A stretch of DNA of 64,000 nucleotides from Podarcis cretensis (Eukaryota). The stretch covers positions 47,802,001 to 47,866,000 of the forward strand of contig OX638151.1 in assembly GCA_951804945.1 (NCBI GenBank). The letters run 5' to 3'. The position numbers were made by a program, and so were the translations under genes. This document shows, piece after piece, positions 2,977 to 52,280 of this stretch. The stretch's first letter is position 1, and every line of letters starts with the position of its first letter. The notes below the pieces were generated by a model that was not told the DNA's origin, did not search any database, and saw nothing but the letters and a program-made list of their open reading frames with translations.

Positions 2977-3345
2977 GAGTGATACACTGTGGTTTAAACC
3001 ACTGAGCCTATTGGGCTTGCCAATCAGAAGGTCAGCGGTTTGAATCCGTGTGACCGAGTGAGCTCCTGTTGCTCTGTCCCAGCTTATGCCAACCTAGCAG
3101 TTCGAAAGCATACTAGTGCAAGTAGAGAAATAGGTACAGCTGTGGAGGGAAGGTAAATGGCATTTCCATGTGCTCTGGCCTCTGTCACGATGTTCCCTTG
3201 TGCCAGAAGCAGTTTAGTCATGCTGGCCACATGACCTGGAAAGCTGTCTGTGGACAAATGGCTCCCTCAGCCTGAAGTGAGATGAGCACTGCACCCCATA
3301 GTCGCCTTTGACTGGACTTAACCGTCCACAGGTCCTTTACCTTTA
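2977..3345 (+). mobile_element. Sauria SINE, older copy
   Basis: Aligns with the copies at 8527 and 42359; tRNA-like head with decayed B-box; (ACCTTT)-type tail; CpG decay. Confidence 0.9.
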
Positions 3346-4485
3346 ACAATCTGTTGAGTTTCATTTGTTAAGCAAGTACACAATAGTGGAAGGAGAAACA
3401 ATGTGTGTCCATGAATATTTGATTTTTGCATACCTATCTCCCTTCTGGGGAACAGGACAGGAGAGTGTGCAGGAATACTCATTTGAGCAGGGCTGGCCTG
3501 AATCCTTTGGGCGCCTCAAGCAAGATGTGCTACTGATGCCTCCTCATCCATGCCCCATGGGGTGGGAGGAGACTAGTGGCAAAGCAGCTACTCTGGGGGA
3601 ACACCCCCTTTTCTCCAAGAGTCTTGATGAAAGGGAGTGTTCCTCAAGGTATTGCTGCTGTTCTCCTTATCTTTGGCTTTCAGCTGTTTCTTTGGCTTAC
3701 CTGCATTGGAAGCCGGGTTGTCTTACTTCATTGGTGCGCTCACATGGCACACATTTCTAACCACTTTCCACACCTCAGAATTTGCTGCCTGAGGCAGCTG
3801 ACTCATGGTATGGCACAACGTCCTCTAAGCCACCCTCCCTTGCTTACTTTTTGTAGGGTTCCTTGCACTTGCAGCCCTGGGTACAACAGCAGATTTCTCA
3901 TTGTTGTTTGTACTGTATCTGGAATCCTTTGGCAGGGTACCCATAACAGGTTTTCAGAAGACCGTTCTTCATCCACTCATTACCTTTTTTATCGTTGCTG
4001 TTGTTTCTCTTAGGCTGCTAGGTGTTTGTTGGTTGTACACAGTTATCACTCTCTGACAATTATATAGTCCTATGCTACATTTTGATATCTGAGTTGTTCC
4101 CTTTGTGAAGCCTACACTTGATGCAGTGTGTCGATTGCTACTGAGTTAGGCTGTAACCCTAAACTGACTGACAACAGCAGGGCTTTAGGAGTGGAGCAGT
4201 CAACACTACATCCACAACCCAACCATTTGTGCTGGCCAAGGCAAAAAGAGTTAGGGGACAGGAAAGTATAATATTTGTGCTGTTTTTTAAAGTAGAAAAA
4301 GGTCATTAGGCATGTCCATGGGTTTTTTTAATTACTGCATTTTTTTTACAGATGTATTGTGTTTTTGCCTGCTCCTTGTTGGAATTGTTTTATATTTTTA
4401 ACTGTATTGAATCATGTCCTGAGAACATATGGTTAAAATACTCATTTGTTCAAAAAAGGACCATATTCTGAATTGTGCGTGAGTA

Positions 4486-4711: not shown

Positions 4712-6359
4712 TATACACATGTGAAGTAATAAACCACAGTTTTGTAATTCATACTTTTTCATTTGCTTGAATTTATTTTATACTCATGATTTTGTTATTC
4801 TAGCACATAGAATAACACGTGTGTAATACATAGCAGTAATTATATATTATTTCATAAATGTTAAGCGTTGCAATTTTTTTTGGCAAAACTGCTGAAAACG
4901 GTAGTACAAAATGCAGTGATACTGATGGTCCTATTTTAAGCTGCTTCCCATGCTGCAGAGGAATAAGCACCCATGCAGTGGTGTCCAAACCAGATTTGAT
5001 GAAGTGAAGGGCCATGAAGGCCGACCAAAGTTTAACTTTTTTTAGTTGAAGTTGTTGAGCTTTTTTAGGAGCCAGATTAAACCAACCAGCAGGCCAGATT
5101 AGGCCCCCGAAACAGACTTTGGACATGCCTGCTTTAGGGAAAGAAACCATGTGTGTGAATACATTTGGTTATGAATGACCTTCTCTTGCTTCTTAACCAA
5201 TTTTTAGAATACACGGACGTAGAAGTTGTATTGAAGTAAACAGTAACTTTTGTAGATATTTATTGTTACATGCTTGTTTTTTGTTAGAAATGGTAATGTG
5301 AAGTTCTTAGTCTAGAATTATTTCTGTTGTATCTTCGTAATTTGTTTTGATCACACTAAAGTCTACTCAGCATATAGATAGGATTATGCAATCCACAATT
5401 AGTTCATGCTGGCAACTTCCCTTGCTCTTGCTATGGACCTTGGAGCAAGGAGGACAAAGGGAGGGAGAGGTCCAGGAGCACAATTGCGGTTGTGTGGGGA
5501 AAGAACTTAGAAGTGGCCGGCTTTGTTGGAATCCTCCCTCCCTTTGCATAAAGTTAATGGCAACAAAATAAATGCCAATTTGAGTTAATTGAGAATCCAA
5601 GAAGGCTATCTCCACCCAACCTTCTTTACCCACCTGAAGCCACAGTAGAGCTTCGCATAACAACTAATAGTGGCCAGGGACCATCCAGGACCAGGAGTAC
5701 ACTAATCCAAGTTTAGATAGCAACAGTCACCTCTTTGGGCTCTGCTCCTATATTTTTTTGAACAAAGACCACAAGAGGTTGTGCAGGGAGTCCAGGGAGC
5801 CTGTTGCTGAGATTCTTGGTTCAACTAGAACTCTCCAAGATGAAGTAAAGGAGGCTTACAGAGGTGGACAGGGAAAGCTCTAGCATATATGTTGGTGATA
5901 ATCAAAACACATGCTACTCACTAGCATATTGATAGCATACCCCACTCTAACCCAAATAAAATAATCTTGTTGACTTTCAGAAGAAACCCAAACCCCATAC
6001 CCTTATACAAGGACAAAGGCACATTACTCATAGTCTGTGTTAATGAAGTGAAAAAAGAAGCCTGTGTGCATTTTCTAAAGACTTTCAAGCTTGACCTCTT
6101 TTATCGGCAAAGCAAGATTATTTTGCTGAAAACAGTTTGAATGGGCAGAAACATCCTGTGGCTTGGATTTCTTCCTTGTGGCATGACATTGAATTAATTA
6201 CACTCAGGATGTCCCAGGAATTCTCTACCCTTGTCTTTGTCATGAAAGTTACTCAGGTACCTGACTGGACCCTCTCTGAAAGCATCTTTTAACATTGTTA
6301 AAACAAAATAAAAAAATTCCTTCCAGTAGCACCTTAAAGACCAACTAAGTTAGTTCTTG

Positions 6360-6397
6360 GTATGAGCTTTCGTGTGCATGTACACTTCTTCAGATAC
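6360..6397 (-). ncRNA. Second hammerhead motif copy (antisense arm)
   Basis: Reverse complement GTATCTGAAGAAGTGTACATGCACACGAAAGCTCATAC; one substitution in stem II. Confidence 0.72.
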
Positions 6398-6673
6398 ACT
6401 GAAACAGAAGTCACCAGACCCTTCTATATAGTGAGAAGGTGGGGAGGGGTATTACTCAGAAGGGTGGTGGAATTGGGTGATTGGCAGATAGCTGTGATGA
6501 GCCTGTTGACGACTCTTAACACTGCAATATGCAAGGAAACTATGTAGCACTTTCTCTAAGAAGCTGCTCAAACATCTGATCAGCGTTCTCTACTCTCCCA
6601 ATCCCACCACCCTTCTGAGTAATACCCCTCCCCACCTCACTATATAGAAGGGTCTGGTGACTTCTGTTTCAGT

Positions 6674-6711
6674 GTATCTGAAGAAGTGTGCATGCACACG
6701 AAAGCTCATAC
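6674..6711 (+). ncRNA. Minimal type I hammerhead ribozyme motif (Penelope-type)
   Basis: GTAT-CTGAAGA-A-GTGTG(CATG)CACAC-GAAA-GC-TC-ATAC: stem I GTAT/ATAC, CUGANGA box, stem II, GAAA, palindromic AGCT helix III, UC cleavage site. Confidence 0.8.
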
Positions 6712-7573
6712 CAAGAACTAACTTAGTTGGTATTTAAGGTGCTACTGGAAGGAATTTTTTTATTTTGTTTTGACTATGGCAGACCAACACGGCTACCTAT
6801 CTGTAATTTTAACATTGTTGTTTTTTCTGTAGCTGGGGGCATGAGTCATCCCCACTGGATTCAGTCTTCCCCACTCAGACTGATGCTTGCTCCTCTACAT
6901 GCCAGTCTCTTACTCAGGAGGCTGCCACACAAGTTCAGCTGTCTTGGAACACTCCTGGAAAGTCTTTTCCAATCTCTCTTTTAGTATTCTTTTAGTCCCC
7001 TTGCCTCAATGGATCACAGAAGCTTGCTCCTTTTTGTCCCTCTTTCATTTAGACTTTAGCTAGATTCCTTACCTCTTACACCCTTGCCAATTGCCTCCAA
7101 ACCATGTTTGTTATTTTATTTCACTGGTTTTAATGAACCTCTGTACAAAGGCACCAGCCAGTGTCTTTATGAAAGAAGGTGAGTGAGTTGGGCTCATGGG
7201 CTACATTATTCACCACTCCATCACAGCCTGAGCCTTATCAGAGAGAGGGAGCATTTCCCACAACACGCATAAAGCAATCATGAAGGAAGTGTGATTACCC
7301 TTGTGCCCTTTTGTGGAAGGATCCCCTCCCATCACAAAGAAAACTCAGTAAATTTGAGATAAGCAACACCTTCTCATCCCTTCCTCACCAGGACAGGTAA
7401 CCCCTGCATCTCAGCTTTCCTACTCTTCTCTGTTCTTCACATTTCTCTGAACTCAAGAGAGAGGACAGCTACTAACCTTTGTTGTTGTTGTTATTGTTCC
7501 TGGTTCTTTCTCTTTCCCCACAGTAAAGTTCAGCTTCACTTTTACTCTTTCCCCTTCATCTTGGTGATTAAGC

Positions 7574-8526: not shown

Positions 8527-8893
8527 GGGACGCAGGTGGCGCTGTGGGTTAAAGCCTCAGCGCCTAGGGCTTGCCGATCGAAAGGTCGGCGGTTCGAATC
8601 CCTGTGGCGGGGTGCGCTCCCGCTGCTCGGTCCCAGCGCCTGCCAACCTAGCAGTTCGAAAGCACCTCCGGGTGCAAGTAGATAAATAGGGACCGCTTAC
8701 CAGCGGGAAGGTAAACGGCGTTTCCGTGTGCGGCTCTGGCTCTGGCCAGAGCAGCGATGTCACGCTGGCCACGTGACCCGGAAGTGTCTCTGGACAGCGC
8801 TGGCCCCTGGCCTCTTAAGTGAGATGGGCGCACAACCCCAGAGTCTGGCAAGACTGGCCCGTACGGGCAGGGGTACCTTTACCTTTACCTTTT
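8527..8893 (+). mobile_element. Full-length young Sauria SINE
   Basis: GGGACGCAGGTGGCGCTGTGGG head, B-box GGTTCGAATCC, (ACCTTT)n tail, CpG-rich; 12-bp TSD ACCTAGAATGAA at 8515-8526 and 8894-8905. Confidence 0.95.
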
Positions 8894-10101: not shown

Positions 10102-10186
10102 AAACAAAATTAAAAAAAAAATCCTTCCAGTACCACCTTAGAGACCAACTAAGTTTGTTATTGGTACGAGCTTTCGTGTGCATGCA
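10102..10186 (-). mobile_element. Truncated Penelope-like pLTR fragment (same family as 6300-6806)
   Basis: Closely matches 6301-6380; stops inside the hammerhead stem II. Confidence 0.85.
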
Positions 10187-10924
10187 ACTTTAGTTTTCAT
10201 TTCCCTCTACTCCCAAATATATCTAGTAGGTGGAATCTAGAAGGACTCAGTGTTAGAAACTGGGGAACACTAGGAGCCCCGTGGCTCCTGGGACCTAGGT
10301 TGTGGGTGGCAAAACAAAATGTCTAGGCATCTTTGGGGGGGGGGGTTGTCCCGCTACCAGACCAGGCAGCCTCCCAGTGCAAAACAAAAACAAAAAAACA
10401 GGGTAGTGCAGCAGCAAAAGACATGTGTTGTGCTTTGCTTTGACATCACACCTCCCTTGTGCAGGTGAGATAGTCTCTAGCTATAGCAGCGCTGCTATTC
10501 AGTCATGTCAGGCCTTACACTTTACATTGTAAATGCTTGTGGATGTCAGTTGAGCTACAGCAGCCCAGCTGGTATAAATTGATGGTGGATTGGATTGGAA
10601 CCTCATATAACAACTTTCATAAATCTGAAACATCTATGATGGTTACAGTGTAATTTTGTATCACAAGGCTAGGCAAAGTTGGCATGGTTTTTATTTGGGC
10701 AAAAATTTTAACCCACCCAGAAAAACCATGCACGTCTTAGTTCTTGCTTTTCTGGGGTTTTATTGTTCCATTTGGATCTGTTGGGTGTTAGCCAGTGATG
10801 TTGTTCCGCTAACACAAGAACTTTTGACTGTGCAGAGGAACTTTCCCTTGCTCTCCTCTTGCACCCCCCCCCCAAACCTGTTCTGGGGTGTTCCTTCAGT
10901 GTTTGATCCCTGTATGGGACAGCT

Positions 10925-10993
10925 GCATATTCCTGCATTGCAGGGGGTGGACTAGATGATCCTCAGGATCCCTTCCAACTCTATGATTCTATG
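10925..10993 (+). mobile_element. CR1 LINE/SINE 3' tail inserted in a palindromic MITE
   Basis: GGACTAGATGATCCTCAGGATCCCTTCCAACTCTATGATTCTATG, the CR1 terminus. Confidence 0.75.
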
Positions 10994-13521
10994 TCTATGT
11001 CTGAACCCTCCAGAGCAGATTTAGGGAGGATGTGTGGGATATGGAAGGAGAGGAGATTTCCATTCTGGTGTGTGTGGGGGGTGTAGTGTTTGCTGTCTTT
11101 TTATAAACTGCTCATAGACTGTTCTGGTATGAAGCAGTATATAAATGTATTTCATTGATAGGTTGAGAGTTAAATTATCTTCTTTGATCAGAACTGTTTA
11201 CACAGAAGGCTGTAGTGTGCTAGCAACTGGTCTTGGGGAAACTGCTCAGTAGCAAAGCAGCACTTTTCTTTCCCCCTCTCTATAGCTTTGTGCACTTACA
11301 CTACAGCTGCATAATTCTTAGAAAACGCCTGGTTCTTCAGAGCCAGGATTGCCAGCAGCCACAGCTGAGCACTATGATGAGTGAACTCCTAGCTCTTTTA
11401 AGCTAACAGACTGATAACAAAAATATTCTGCCATAGGTATGCTAATTAACACATCTAATGTGATTTTTGTTGGAAAAAACAATGTAATCACAAGGCAAGC
11501 CACAAGTGACAGAATGTAATTGTCTGATAAATAGCACTGTGCTATATTTCCCAACAGTTGTATGCAGCTACCATTTTCTGCACACAACTGGCCCTTTTAT
11601 TTCCTGTTTCAAGGAAGGCTATATTTTATACAACACAATGTACATCATTAATTCTATAAAGGATTATGTTGCACTGTGTTTCATTTTCATGTATAAAAGC
11701 TTGGATAAAAAATTTATGTTCAAACTGAGCCCCCACCTTGTAAACAGCCTAAGCTTGGTTGGTTTCCTTGCCAAATCTATAGAAATCTTAAAAGTGGTTT
11801 TAAGAAATGGGATCAAATTCTGTTTGTTGGACAGTGTGACTTCAATATTTTATAGAATACTTCAAGCTCAAAAGCTTTAAAAAGGATATTGGCCCAAACA
11901 AAGATATCAAAACCTGGGTTTTTACACACCAAGTTAATGTTTCTTGAAACAGATCTATTCATCTTACAGTTTATTAGGGGAAGCACATTGATAGCAGAAT
12001 TAGTGCCTGTTGAAATATTTCTGTGCTCTTGATAAGTGTAAGAGCCCAATGCAAAAAAAAAAAAAAAAAAAAAAGCAAATAGTTTTTGAGAAAAATAATT
12101 TTACAGCTTATTCACCAAGTTGATTCTCACAGTTCCTTGGGGAAAAATAAGAGAGGTAGGGAATGATTGGTGCATTTAAAAAGTGCACCGATATTTCTAG
12201 ATTCCTAGGTAATGGAAACAAACAACTTTTTAGATTTACACCATGTCTTACTGCTTTTCCGATTTAAAAAAAAATCTAAAAGATTGTGTGAGCTTTGAAT
12301 TAGCAATAAGCTTATACAGGAAGCAAAAGTTATTTGTGATGAGAGGCCTGCACTTTTACTGTTTGGGAAAGAGGTGACCCATGTTGCCTAAAGCATCTGT
12401 CCCTCAGCAGTCTGTGCCTGAATGTCTAGCCCCTTGCCCAGCAAAGAAGGGGCTTGCTTTGCAGTTTAGATTTGGAAATTGGCTCCCTGAGGAGTTCCCT
12501 GAAGAATCTGCTGCACCAACAGAAGTTAGGCAGAGATTGCAGAGCAGGCTGCTCCACCTCTTCCTTGTTGGGTCCTGATCTAATTTCCCTCCTCCTGAGT
12601 TTAACTTCAGGAAGGGATACCACAAGCAGACAGGCAAGTGTCTGGCTCACTGCTGGTTCAGGGCTTCGAGCCTGGTTTATTCATGCCTGAGAGCCAGCTG
12701 TATATTTATGGTGTCTCCCGCATCTGGGCAGAAGAAGACAGGAGCGCTTGCAGTTCAGCCCATAAAGTACAGCCTAAGAGCCTGGGAGCACCTCCCTCTT
12801 TGTTCTTCCTTGTGTGCTTGTGCATGTCTTGCCACCTCCCTCTCCCTCTCCAGCAGCTGTGTGAGCTCTGAGTGCTGTCCCTGTCATTGCTGCCCTTGGA
12901 TCCCTGCACTAATGTTAGTTAGGGGCTTGGAGACACACAGGAAGCAGCCATAGACACCACCTCACCAGCCCTCATTATTGACACCTCATATGATCACACA
13001 CTGTCCCATTAGATCCATTTCTGTTGAAAAATATTGCGGCTTGGGGCAAGACAGGTGCACAGCTACTGTAGGTGTGGGAGTGGGGAGAAAAGGGCAAGAA
13101 AAGGCAGGGGAAATGGGGGAGCAGCTCTGATTCGCTCTAGGAAAAGCAGCTTCCCTGAGCTGTCAAGTTGAAAGGATACATTCAGGCATAATATTTGTAA
13201 CATTTAACAACTTTAAAGATGTGCCCCCCTGTAATTTTTGTAACAATATTCTATACCATTTCTATGGAAGTTTCCTTGGTCTCAGGGTCAGGATCCAGAT
13301 TAATATTGACTGGTTTAGCTATTTTTGATGTGATCAATGTCTAGCCAAGGTCTAAGCAGGTTAGGTTTCTAGTTGCTTAAACAGGTCCTGTTTGACAAGG
13401 ATAGAAGGAGATGAAATTTGCCAGGCATAATGCTTGGGAACTGAATGAATGGAGAACTATCATGAGCATGATTCATAATTTACTTAGAACAATATGAGGA
13501 CTCTTTTTTCAAAAGTTCCAT

Positions 13522-13844
13522 ATAGAATCATAGAATTGTAGAATTGGAAGGGACCCTGAGAGCCATCTAGTCCAAACCCCGTGATGCAGGAATCTCAACT
13601 AAATCATACATGAAAAATGGCTATCCAGCCTCTGCATAAAAAGTAGAGTACATCATCTCCCCAGGGCATCTATTTCACTGGCAAACAACTCTTATCGACG
13701 GAAAAGGCTTCCTGATATTTAGCCGGAATCTCCTTTTTTGTAACTTAAAGCCATTGGTTTGGGTCCTACCCTCCAGAGCAGACTAAAACAAGCTTGTTCC
13801 ATCTTCCATGTGTCAGTCCTTTAGATATTTGAAGATGGCTATCA
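13522..13844 (-). mobile_element. CR1 LINE 3' fragment
   Basis: ATAGAATCATAGAATTGTAGAATTGGAAGGGACC (reverse complement of CR1 tail), followed by ORF2 C-terminal-like sequence. Confidence 0.85.
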
Positions 13845-16454: not shown

Positions 16455-16523
16455 CTGTGGGGGTTGGGCTAGATAACCCATGTGGTCCCTTCCAACTCTA
16501 CAATTCTGTGATTCTATGATTCT
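16455..16523 (+). mobile_element. CR1 3' tail
   Basis: GGTCCCTTCCAACTCTACAATTCTGTGATTCTATGATTCT. Confidence 0.8.
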
Positions 16524-42358: not shown

Positions 42359-42737
42359 ACGCGGGTGGCGCTGTGGTCTAAACCATTGAGCCTCTTGGGC
42401 TTGCTGATCAGAAGGTCGGTGGTTCGAATCCCCACAATGGGGTGAGCTCCCATTGCTCTGTTCCAGCTCCTGCCAACTTGGCAGTTCAAAAGCACACCAG
42501 TGCAAGTAGATAAATAGGTACTGCTGCGGGAGGAAGGTAAACGGTGTTTCTGTGCGCTCTGGTTTCAGTCATGGTGTTCTGTTGCGCCAGAAGCTATTTA
42601 GTCATGCTGGCCACATACCCAGAAAGCTGTCTGTGGACAAATGCCGGCTCCCTCAGCCTGAAAGCGAGATGAGCGTCTCAACCCCATAGTTGCCTTTGAC
42701 TGGACTTAACCATCCAGGGGTCCTTTACCTTTTACCT
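42359..42737 (+). mobile_element. Sauria SINE, intermediate age
   Basis: Head GCGGGTGGCGCTGTGG, B-box GGTTCGAATCC, ACCTTT tail; degenerate TSD TAGTGCATACATAA / TAGTTCTTACATGA. Confidence 0.93.
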
Positions 42738-52129: not shown

Positions 52130-52280
52130 TCAGTGTATACTCAGTTGGTAGAGCATGGGATTCTTAATCTCAGGGTTGTGGATTCAAGCCCCACATTGGG
52201 CAAAAGATTTCTGCATTGCAAGGGGTTGGATTAGATGACCTTTGTGGTCCCTTCCAACTCTAGAACTCTAGGATTCTATG
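52130..52280 (+). mobile_element. tRNA-Lys(CTT)-derived SINE with CR1 3' tail
   Basis: 52140-52202 closely matches vertebrate tRNA-Lys-CTT (CTCAGTTGGTAGAGCATGGGATTCTTAATCTCAGGGTTGTGG...) and is fused to a GGTCCCTTCCAACTCTA...ATTCTATG CR1 tail. Confidence 0.88.

Follow-up and report, generated by a model that had tools for sequence, protein, structure and literature searches.

The window (the whole 64,000-nt stretch of Podarcis cretensis DNA that we analysed) carries on its plus strand a run of exons from about 14.0 kb to just beyond its end, belonging to a gene that we take, from its protein motifs, to be ARID4B; a Pfam search of the large exon returned no family. Because an ATGAAG/gt exon lies upstream (next to a CpG island, 15.4 kb before the window) and coding sequence resumes at ~14.0 kb, the motif studied here, at 6674-6711, falls in a 29-kb intron and is sense to the gene. 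The exon positions thus agree with the intronic, sense placement given in the initial annotation, the gene name being again a matter of protein motifs; the intron is presumably intron 2, following the human gene structure. The CpG island (~15.5-18 kb upstream of the window) separates the presumed ARID4B from a head-to-head neighbour on the opposite strand, whose exons beyond the ATGAAG/gt exon we assume to be those of a GGPS1-like gene. Just past the window (~window +70,900) is a 1,036-codon open frame of LINE-type endonuclease/RT, and the introns hold dispersed repeats of two families (2987-3347, 8556-8889, 42371-42735; 10943-11001, 13522-13593, 16460-16518, 52222-52280) that presumably resemble a SINE and a CR1 3' end.

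A 507-bp insertion, spanning 6300-6806 and flanked by a 13-bp target-site duplication, holds the motif. The insertion and one neighbouring copy are laid out as follows:

6287..6299, no strand: left copy of the target-site duplication, TTTTAACATTGTT; the empty site joins 6286 to 6807
6300..6529, minus strand: tailless inverted pLTR arm whose 5' end faces inward; 97% identical to family copy L004
6360..6397, minus strand: second hammerhead with one stem II change (GTGTA for GTGTG), a core-pattern match
6520..6596, plus strand: N-terminal ORF scrap, YARKLCSTFSKKLLKHLISVLYS; 97% identical to the ORF-bearing long copies L043, L044 and L046
6594..6771, plus strand: right pLTR arm (3' part), which holds the motif; 97% identical to L004
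6641..6649, plus strand: TATA-like box, TATATAGAA, 30-31 nt before 6671-6672; putative promoter element
6669..6673, plus strand: initiator-like TCAGT, hot spot of family 5' ends (mode 6672); putative start site
6772..6806, plus strand: 35-nt tail, on the right arm only, with the ORF start ATG at 6776 (MADQHGYLSV)
6807..6819, no strand: right copy of the target-site duplication, TTTTAACATTGTT, with the same empty-site junction
10102..10190, minus strand: older separate pLTR-end copy (88%), cut off inside stem II and lacking the 5' half of the core

The two inverted arms are identical at 174/178 aligned bases, and the left one (6300-6529) is antisense to the motif in the ARID4B pre-mRNA. Between them, the 70-bp ORF scrap is joined to the pLTR where an internal deletion has removed most of the ORF, leaving only 23 + 10 codons in this copy; we had also considered 6530-6593 as captured host DNA, which was ruled out when it proved to be the element's own ORF. 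The TATA and initiator-like pair is mirrored in the left arm (6430-6398 vs 6641-6673), which has a pair of CCAAT-like boxes as well and is oriented antisense to ARID4B. The older copy at 10102-10190 lies 3.4 kb downstream of the motif and antisense to it, and in its subfamily the A that follows the cut site is replaced by G, giving a G-U pair in stem I.

The insertion is recent and neutral-looking. Two DNA runs were compared across the locus: X14 crosses both insertion junctions, and X18, the DNA of a close relative (under another organism label, about 1% diverged), has an empty site, its contig 9 passing from 6286 to 6807 without insert and with 12 other letters in 1,081. With one of the two runs (X18) thus empty, the motif is not a hammerhead conserved in the host intron.

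Read directly, the plus strand at 6674-6711 is GTAT CTGAAGA A GTGTG CATG CACAC GAAA GC TC ATAC, in which the following parts were assigned from the sequence, all on the plus strand:

6674..6711: minimal type I hammerhead motif, also present as 6,322 exact genome copies
6674-6677/6708-6711: stem I, 4 bp
6678-6684: hammerhead core C3-A9
6685: extra unpaired A between A9 and 10.1
6686-6690/6695-6699: stem II, 5 bp with a CAUG loop
6700-6703: hammerhead G12-A15.1
6703-6706: AGCT palindrome (helix III)
6707: C17, with the cut predicted after C6707

All the core bases of a hammerhead are present (CUGANGA, GAAA, the A15.1-U16.1 pair with U16.1 at 6706, and H17 at 6707), together with a 4-bp helix I, the unpaired A6685, the G6686-C6699 pair and a palindromic 15.2-16.2 (AGCT). 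A helix I of 4-5 bp, an unpaired base, G10.1-C11.1 and a palindromic 15.2-16.2 are the traits of minimal hammerheads (PMC4209133, excerpt). The sequence agrees exactly with what the initial annotation had described, namely an intact minimal hammerhead cutting after C6707, with helix III reduced to the palindrome AGCU (AGCT at 6703-6706) and stem II and its loop forming a perfect 14-nt palindrome (6686-6699). The core pattern matched twice in the 64-kb window, whereas 100 shuffles averaged 0.01 matches, and exact copies of the 38-mer number 6,322 in the 1.5-Gb genome (3,134 forward, 3,188 reverse) against 0 for the reversed control, so the motif is not a product of chance; a looser core pattern gave 8,584 matches genome-wide. 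The check suggested initially, a search with the Rfam hammerhead models, detected neither the motif nor its minus-strand copy: there were 0 hammerhead matches in the window at the gathering score, and none among the 5 matches at E<=10 over 6200-6900. A MIR2118 match from Rfam at the locus was discarded because it reflects only the long hairpin.

The insertion is a truncated Penelope-like one of a known kind, and its motif is the standard minimal hammerhead of such elements, as had been proposed at the outset. The family copy L028 has a single frame with RVT_1 (29.7 bits) followed by GIY-YIG (25.2 bits), both above the Pfam cut-offs, and two cysteines between the motifs (IVYAIKCQQCPSALYIGQT), as in EN+ Penelope-like elements; in the long copies L004, L028 and L044 the motif lies in the pLTR, after the end of the GIY-YIG ORF and before the ORF start. 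Inverted pLTRs, a 30-40-nt tail on one end and a target-site duplication complete the layout of that class, inverted-pLTR insertions of which are reviewed in PMC8557442 (excerpt). The same overview gives a zinc-finger-like CX2-5CxxC linker between RT and endonuclease as the mark of Neptune/Nematis, and the L028 linker, CNKPRCQLC, reads CX4CxxC; this one linker motif points to an element of Neptune/Nematis type rather than Penelope/Poseidon.

A pattern that lies downstream of the hammerhead gave 9,603 matches, and to describe the family we surveyed the first 100 (C1, 0.2-8.2 Mb; L077-L151). Of the surveyed arms, 100/125 form 50 head-to-head pairs, with the tail on exactly one arm in 46/50. Among arms whose hammerhead is complete, 60/89 have an inverted partner that overlaps them and 29/89 do not. 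At the best subfamily marker (58 pairs examined, 50 of which cover the marker site), the two arms agree in 45/50 pairs (36 major, 9 minor) and differ in 5. We had entertained an origin of the two arms from two independent RNAs, which would have made about 16 pairs differ; since subfamily variants are shared in 45/50 pairs, the two arms mostly come from one source.

The survey layout, head to head with one tail, fits priming on both DNA strands from two internal RNA sites, a mechanism demonstrated in vitro with the Anolis element (PMC11167929, excerpt). Extrapolating from that work, the element protein would have nicked AT-rich DNA on both strands, and reverse transcription would have been primed from two positions within the RNA, 35 nt apart; head-to-head arms with a tail on one of them would result. 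The many short copies with a common 5' boundary at the hammerhead could also be read as a non-LTR retrozyme, or as a miniature element that replicates independently as a unit of its own and did not arise by truncation, and retrozymes have been proposed to derive from pLTRs (bioRxiv 10.64898/2026.07.22.740005, excerpt). At least two tandem hammerhead units would then be expected, whereas the locus has no tandem units; the insert carries ORF sequence, although retrozymes are defined as free of coding sequence; and junctions and arm lengths vary between insertions. We regard this origin as extremely unlikely, and take the insertion to be a truncation product.

Further copies were noted on the way. 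Within the same intron, ~6.1 kb before the window begins, a second family insertion (L031:3810-4061) carries an intact sense hammerhead; it starts exactly at the first base of the motif, its inverted arm is short, and its duplication is 14 bp long (CTGTCCTTTATGCA). A sister Penelope subfamily is represented by five copies (L200-L204, C3:120.55-120.73 Mb), 39-50 kb apart, which share 85-86% protein identity over the endonuclease end and a stem II loop variant, and probably sit in a segmental repeat. Another, decayed hammerhead-like family (L193, L195, L211, L215, L188) has a stem II of the GAGTTC...GAATTC type and a common downstream sequence.

An old related family (L218-L242), with 78-88% identity to the query, served to compare the core between lineages. 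Its majority bases keep the same core, while the stems have changed in a compensatory manner: stem I is GCAT/ATGC against GTAT/ATAC here, and stem II has 6 bp, GTGG(A/G)C/GTCCAC, against GTGTG/CACAC. The shared core and these compensatory changes indicate that selection acts on the motif as an RNA structure in the lineage of the element, the core match being partly ascertained since the family was first found through the core pattern. The inserted old-family copies themselves differ from their majority at 35/240 core and 124/960 flank positions, and the core is kept in 6/25 rows, counting the query and with two of the rows being arms of one insertion. Loss of the core at the flank rate argues that the host does not keep inserted copies. 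The suggestion that the core should be better conserved than its flanks thus held between the families and failed among the old inserted copies. As read from these comparisons, selection acts on the active element and not on the intronic copies. Divergence in the young family is 11/1,027 in the core (9 of them at one CpG) and 1.3-3.1% in the flanks, a contrast that is uninformative. No ORF was found beside the old-family copies, most of which also seem to lose the shared sequence just upstream of the motif.

Folding predictions bear on what the motif would do in the ARID4B pre-mRNA. In the predicted fold of 6280-6830 (-363.6 kcal/mol), stems I and II have a pairing probability of 0.0, and forcing the hammerhead costs +69.7 kcal/mol; since the sense RNA holds its own antisense copy 300 nt upstream, full masking is predicted. 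When the left arm was omitted, the predicted probability of stem I was <=0.058 in 22/22 contexts, and the bare 38-mer was the only context predicted to fold as drawn (0.7). Masking of this kind is not universal in the family, given the 29/89 full-hammerhead arms without an overlapping inverted partner. As polymerase II passes the insertion, the antisense arm would be made first and would pair with the hammerhead arm, and the resulting ~180-bp duplex would more likely undergo A-to-I editing than act as a ribozyme.

The motif had been described as lacking a same-strand partner, which is true within the window, but that account omitted the minus-strand copy at 6397-6360 and the intact same-strand copy 12.8 kb upstream of the motif, in the same intron and outside the window (L031). 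With its core bases all intact and this second copy in the same intron, the motif might be imagined to cleave the ARID4B pre-mRNA at 6707/6708 by dimerizing with the upstream copy, through family RNA in trans (such RNA being present in a relative), or with the help of the element protein, as known for the Anolis element, whose hammerhead needs that protein for cleavage (PMC11167929, excerpt). Each of the two intronic copies has its own inverted arm, however, that of L031 covering its 3' half, and for each the predicted stem I probability is 0.0. Dimerization appears no more favorable: the AGCU duplex is predicted to give only -2.5 kcal/mol, and the lowest-energy dimer of the 38-mer pairs through the stem II palindrome, destroying stem II. 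In published assays, a monomeric minimal hammerhead did not cleave and dimers cleaved weakly (PMC4209133, excerpt).

Two raw RNA runs of a relative (~12% of each read) gave 1,295 and 1,236 family reads, with depth in 10/30 bins, all within the repeat, and none on the unique flanks. The reads come from other copies of the family, since 91-93% of them continue into unlike sequence, and with unique flanks free of depth these runs are uninformative on the window copy; A>G and T>C differences in them are not readable as editing. Read ends did not pile up at 6707/6708 among the family reads in either run (2/2), a weak argument against cleavage given fragmented libraries from another species. We consider it very improbable that the motif cuts ARID4B pre-mRNA by any of these routes.

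The insertion might also affect its host otherwise, as a long intronic duplex, by way of editing or of how the 29-kb intron is spliced, or as a core promoter working in both directions. The predicted ~180-bp duplex is 97% paired, and both arms carry TATA and initiator-like elements, the left one in antisense to ARID4B; promoter motifs are noted in pLTRs (PMC3846280, excerpt) and an internal promoter was shown for Drosophila Penelope (PMC2377424, excerpt). Against such an effect, the insertion is absent from a relative about 1% diverged, lies 7 kb from the nearest exon and is one of thousands of similar insertions, and we hold it to be very unlikely.

Altogether, it is highly probable that the motif, the pLTR hammerhead of an abundant young Penelope-like element, is locked in a hairpin and would not cut the host pre-mRNA, a verdict on cleavage that comes from equilibrium folding prediction and from analogy. 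For ARID4B, the insertion is probably without consequence, its ribozyme being predicted to be masked. The earlier view that the motif is latent or acts only in trans is thus probably right as to latency, but it had overlooked the local 180-bp inverted repeat, which predicts full masking and not the wait for a trans partner. With thousands of intact copies in the genome, it would be possible to ask genome-wide whether introns are depleted of sense hammerheads that are not masked. The function of the hammerhead would belong to the active element's own RNA, of which it likely forms the first 40 nt.

This last suggestion comes from where insertions of the family begin. Among 120 surveyed arms with a 3' end (shorter internal pieces being left out, and paired arms not being independent), 41/89 of those reaching the 5' border of the hammerhead stop <=5 nt from G6674, with the mode at G6672, and 4/113 end within the 11 nt surrounding the cut site, a count not above that of the adjacent bins. 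Counted per insertion, 35/75 begin <=5 nt from the first base of the hammerhead vs 1/75 near the cut site. Unpaired arms give 14/25 at the 5' border vs 1/25 near the cut site, so that microhomology with the palindromic stem II is not the cause. Adding 15 loci picked by their hammerhead gave 46/106 and 5/135, respectively, and in two DNA runs the loose ends of contigs pile up at 6674 (31 and 46).

Since the ends fall at the 5' border of the hammerhead and not at the cut site, the templates were probably uncut. The simplest reading of these ends would be a transcription start, set by the TATA at -31 and the initiator-like TCAGT, with reverse transcription proceeding from the internal priming sites. 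We tentatively propose, at somewhat less than even chances, that insertions record the 5' end of the RNA, with transcription starting at the first bases of the hammerhead, reverse transcription passing through the uncut ribozyme and the hammerhead forming a 5'-terminal module of the mRNA. Alternatively, the hot spot could be a splice acceptor at the CAG of 6670-6672, in line with a Drosophila element whose intron ends at helix I (PMC4209133, excerpt), or it could mark polymerase fall-off. Cut RNAs may also simply fail to insert, so that some cutting by the ribozyme would be compatible with the pattern of ends. A cap-derived extra G at the hot spot was also considered, but the insertion junctions are too mixed with microhomology to show one. 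A search of the literature, mostly outside subscription journals, found no study of this 5' hot spot. The short predicted fold shows an upstream UUUCAG:CUGAAG hairpin. As a weak lead, this hairpin might act as a switch, with the core set free only when transcription begins at 6671-6674, but the gain in stem I probability over longer contexts is just 0.00 to 0.06.

If the insertion ends do mark transcription starts, a hammerhead cut would remove the cap and switch the Penelope mRNA off, and would not release it from a precursor, reversing the usual proposal for Penelope hammerheads. The ends would bear on the question of what these hammerheads do.

The known hammerheads of amniote introns, HH9 and HH10, are single, deeply conserved, full-sized motifs. 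Like them, the window motif is a type I hammerhead sense to its host intron; unlike them, it is minimal, one of thousands, missing in a close relative and without an Rfam match. With the minimal hammerheads of metazoan Penelope-like elements it shares the core, the 4-bp helix I, the unpaired base before G10.1, G10.1-C11.1, the palindromic helix III, the position in the pLTR, thousands of dispersed copies, and pairs on opposite strands 100-700 bp apart; such hammerheads are reported in reptiles (PMC4209133, excerpt). It departs from that description in its stem II, here a perfect 14-nt palindrome, and the cleavage of a precursor RNA proposed there is not what the insertion ends of this family reflect, since they do not map to the cut site.

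Pen2/Pen2a of the rotifer Adineta vaga likewise have head-to-head pLTRs, a 30-40-nt tail containing the ORF start, a short target-site duplication, a pLTR with TATA and initiator, and an internal deletion with microhomology (PMC3846280, excerpt), in another host and another family, the CX4CxxC linker of the window family pointing to Neptune/Nematis and not to Penelope/Poseidon. In reptiles, the Poseidon element of Anolis carolinensis, PAc, resembles the window family in its AT-rich target, and its two internal priming sites explain the tail, as here (PMC11167929, excerpt). The PAc ORF starts in stem II, whereas in the window element the ATG follows the motif at a distance of 65 nt, and a frame opened by the ATG of the motif's stem II loop has only 9 codons. 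For PAc, the excerpted account reports that the hammerhead is dispensable for insertion and that no RNA-seq ends fall at the cut site. The insertion ends of the window family would add an in vivo record that agrees with the uncut RNA template used by PAc in vitro (PMC11167929, excerpt).
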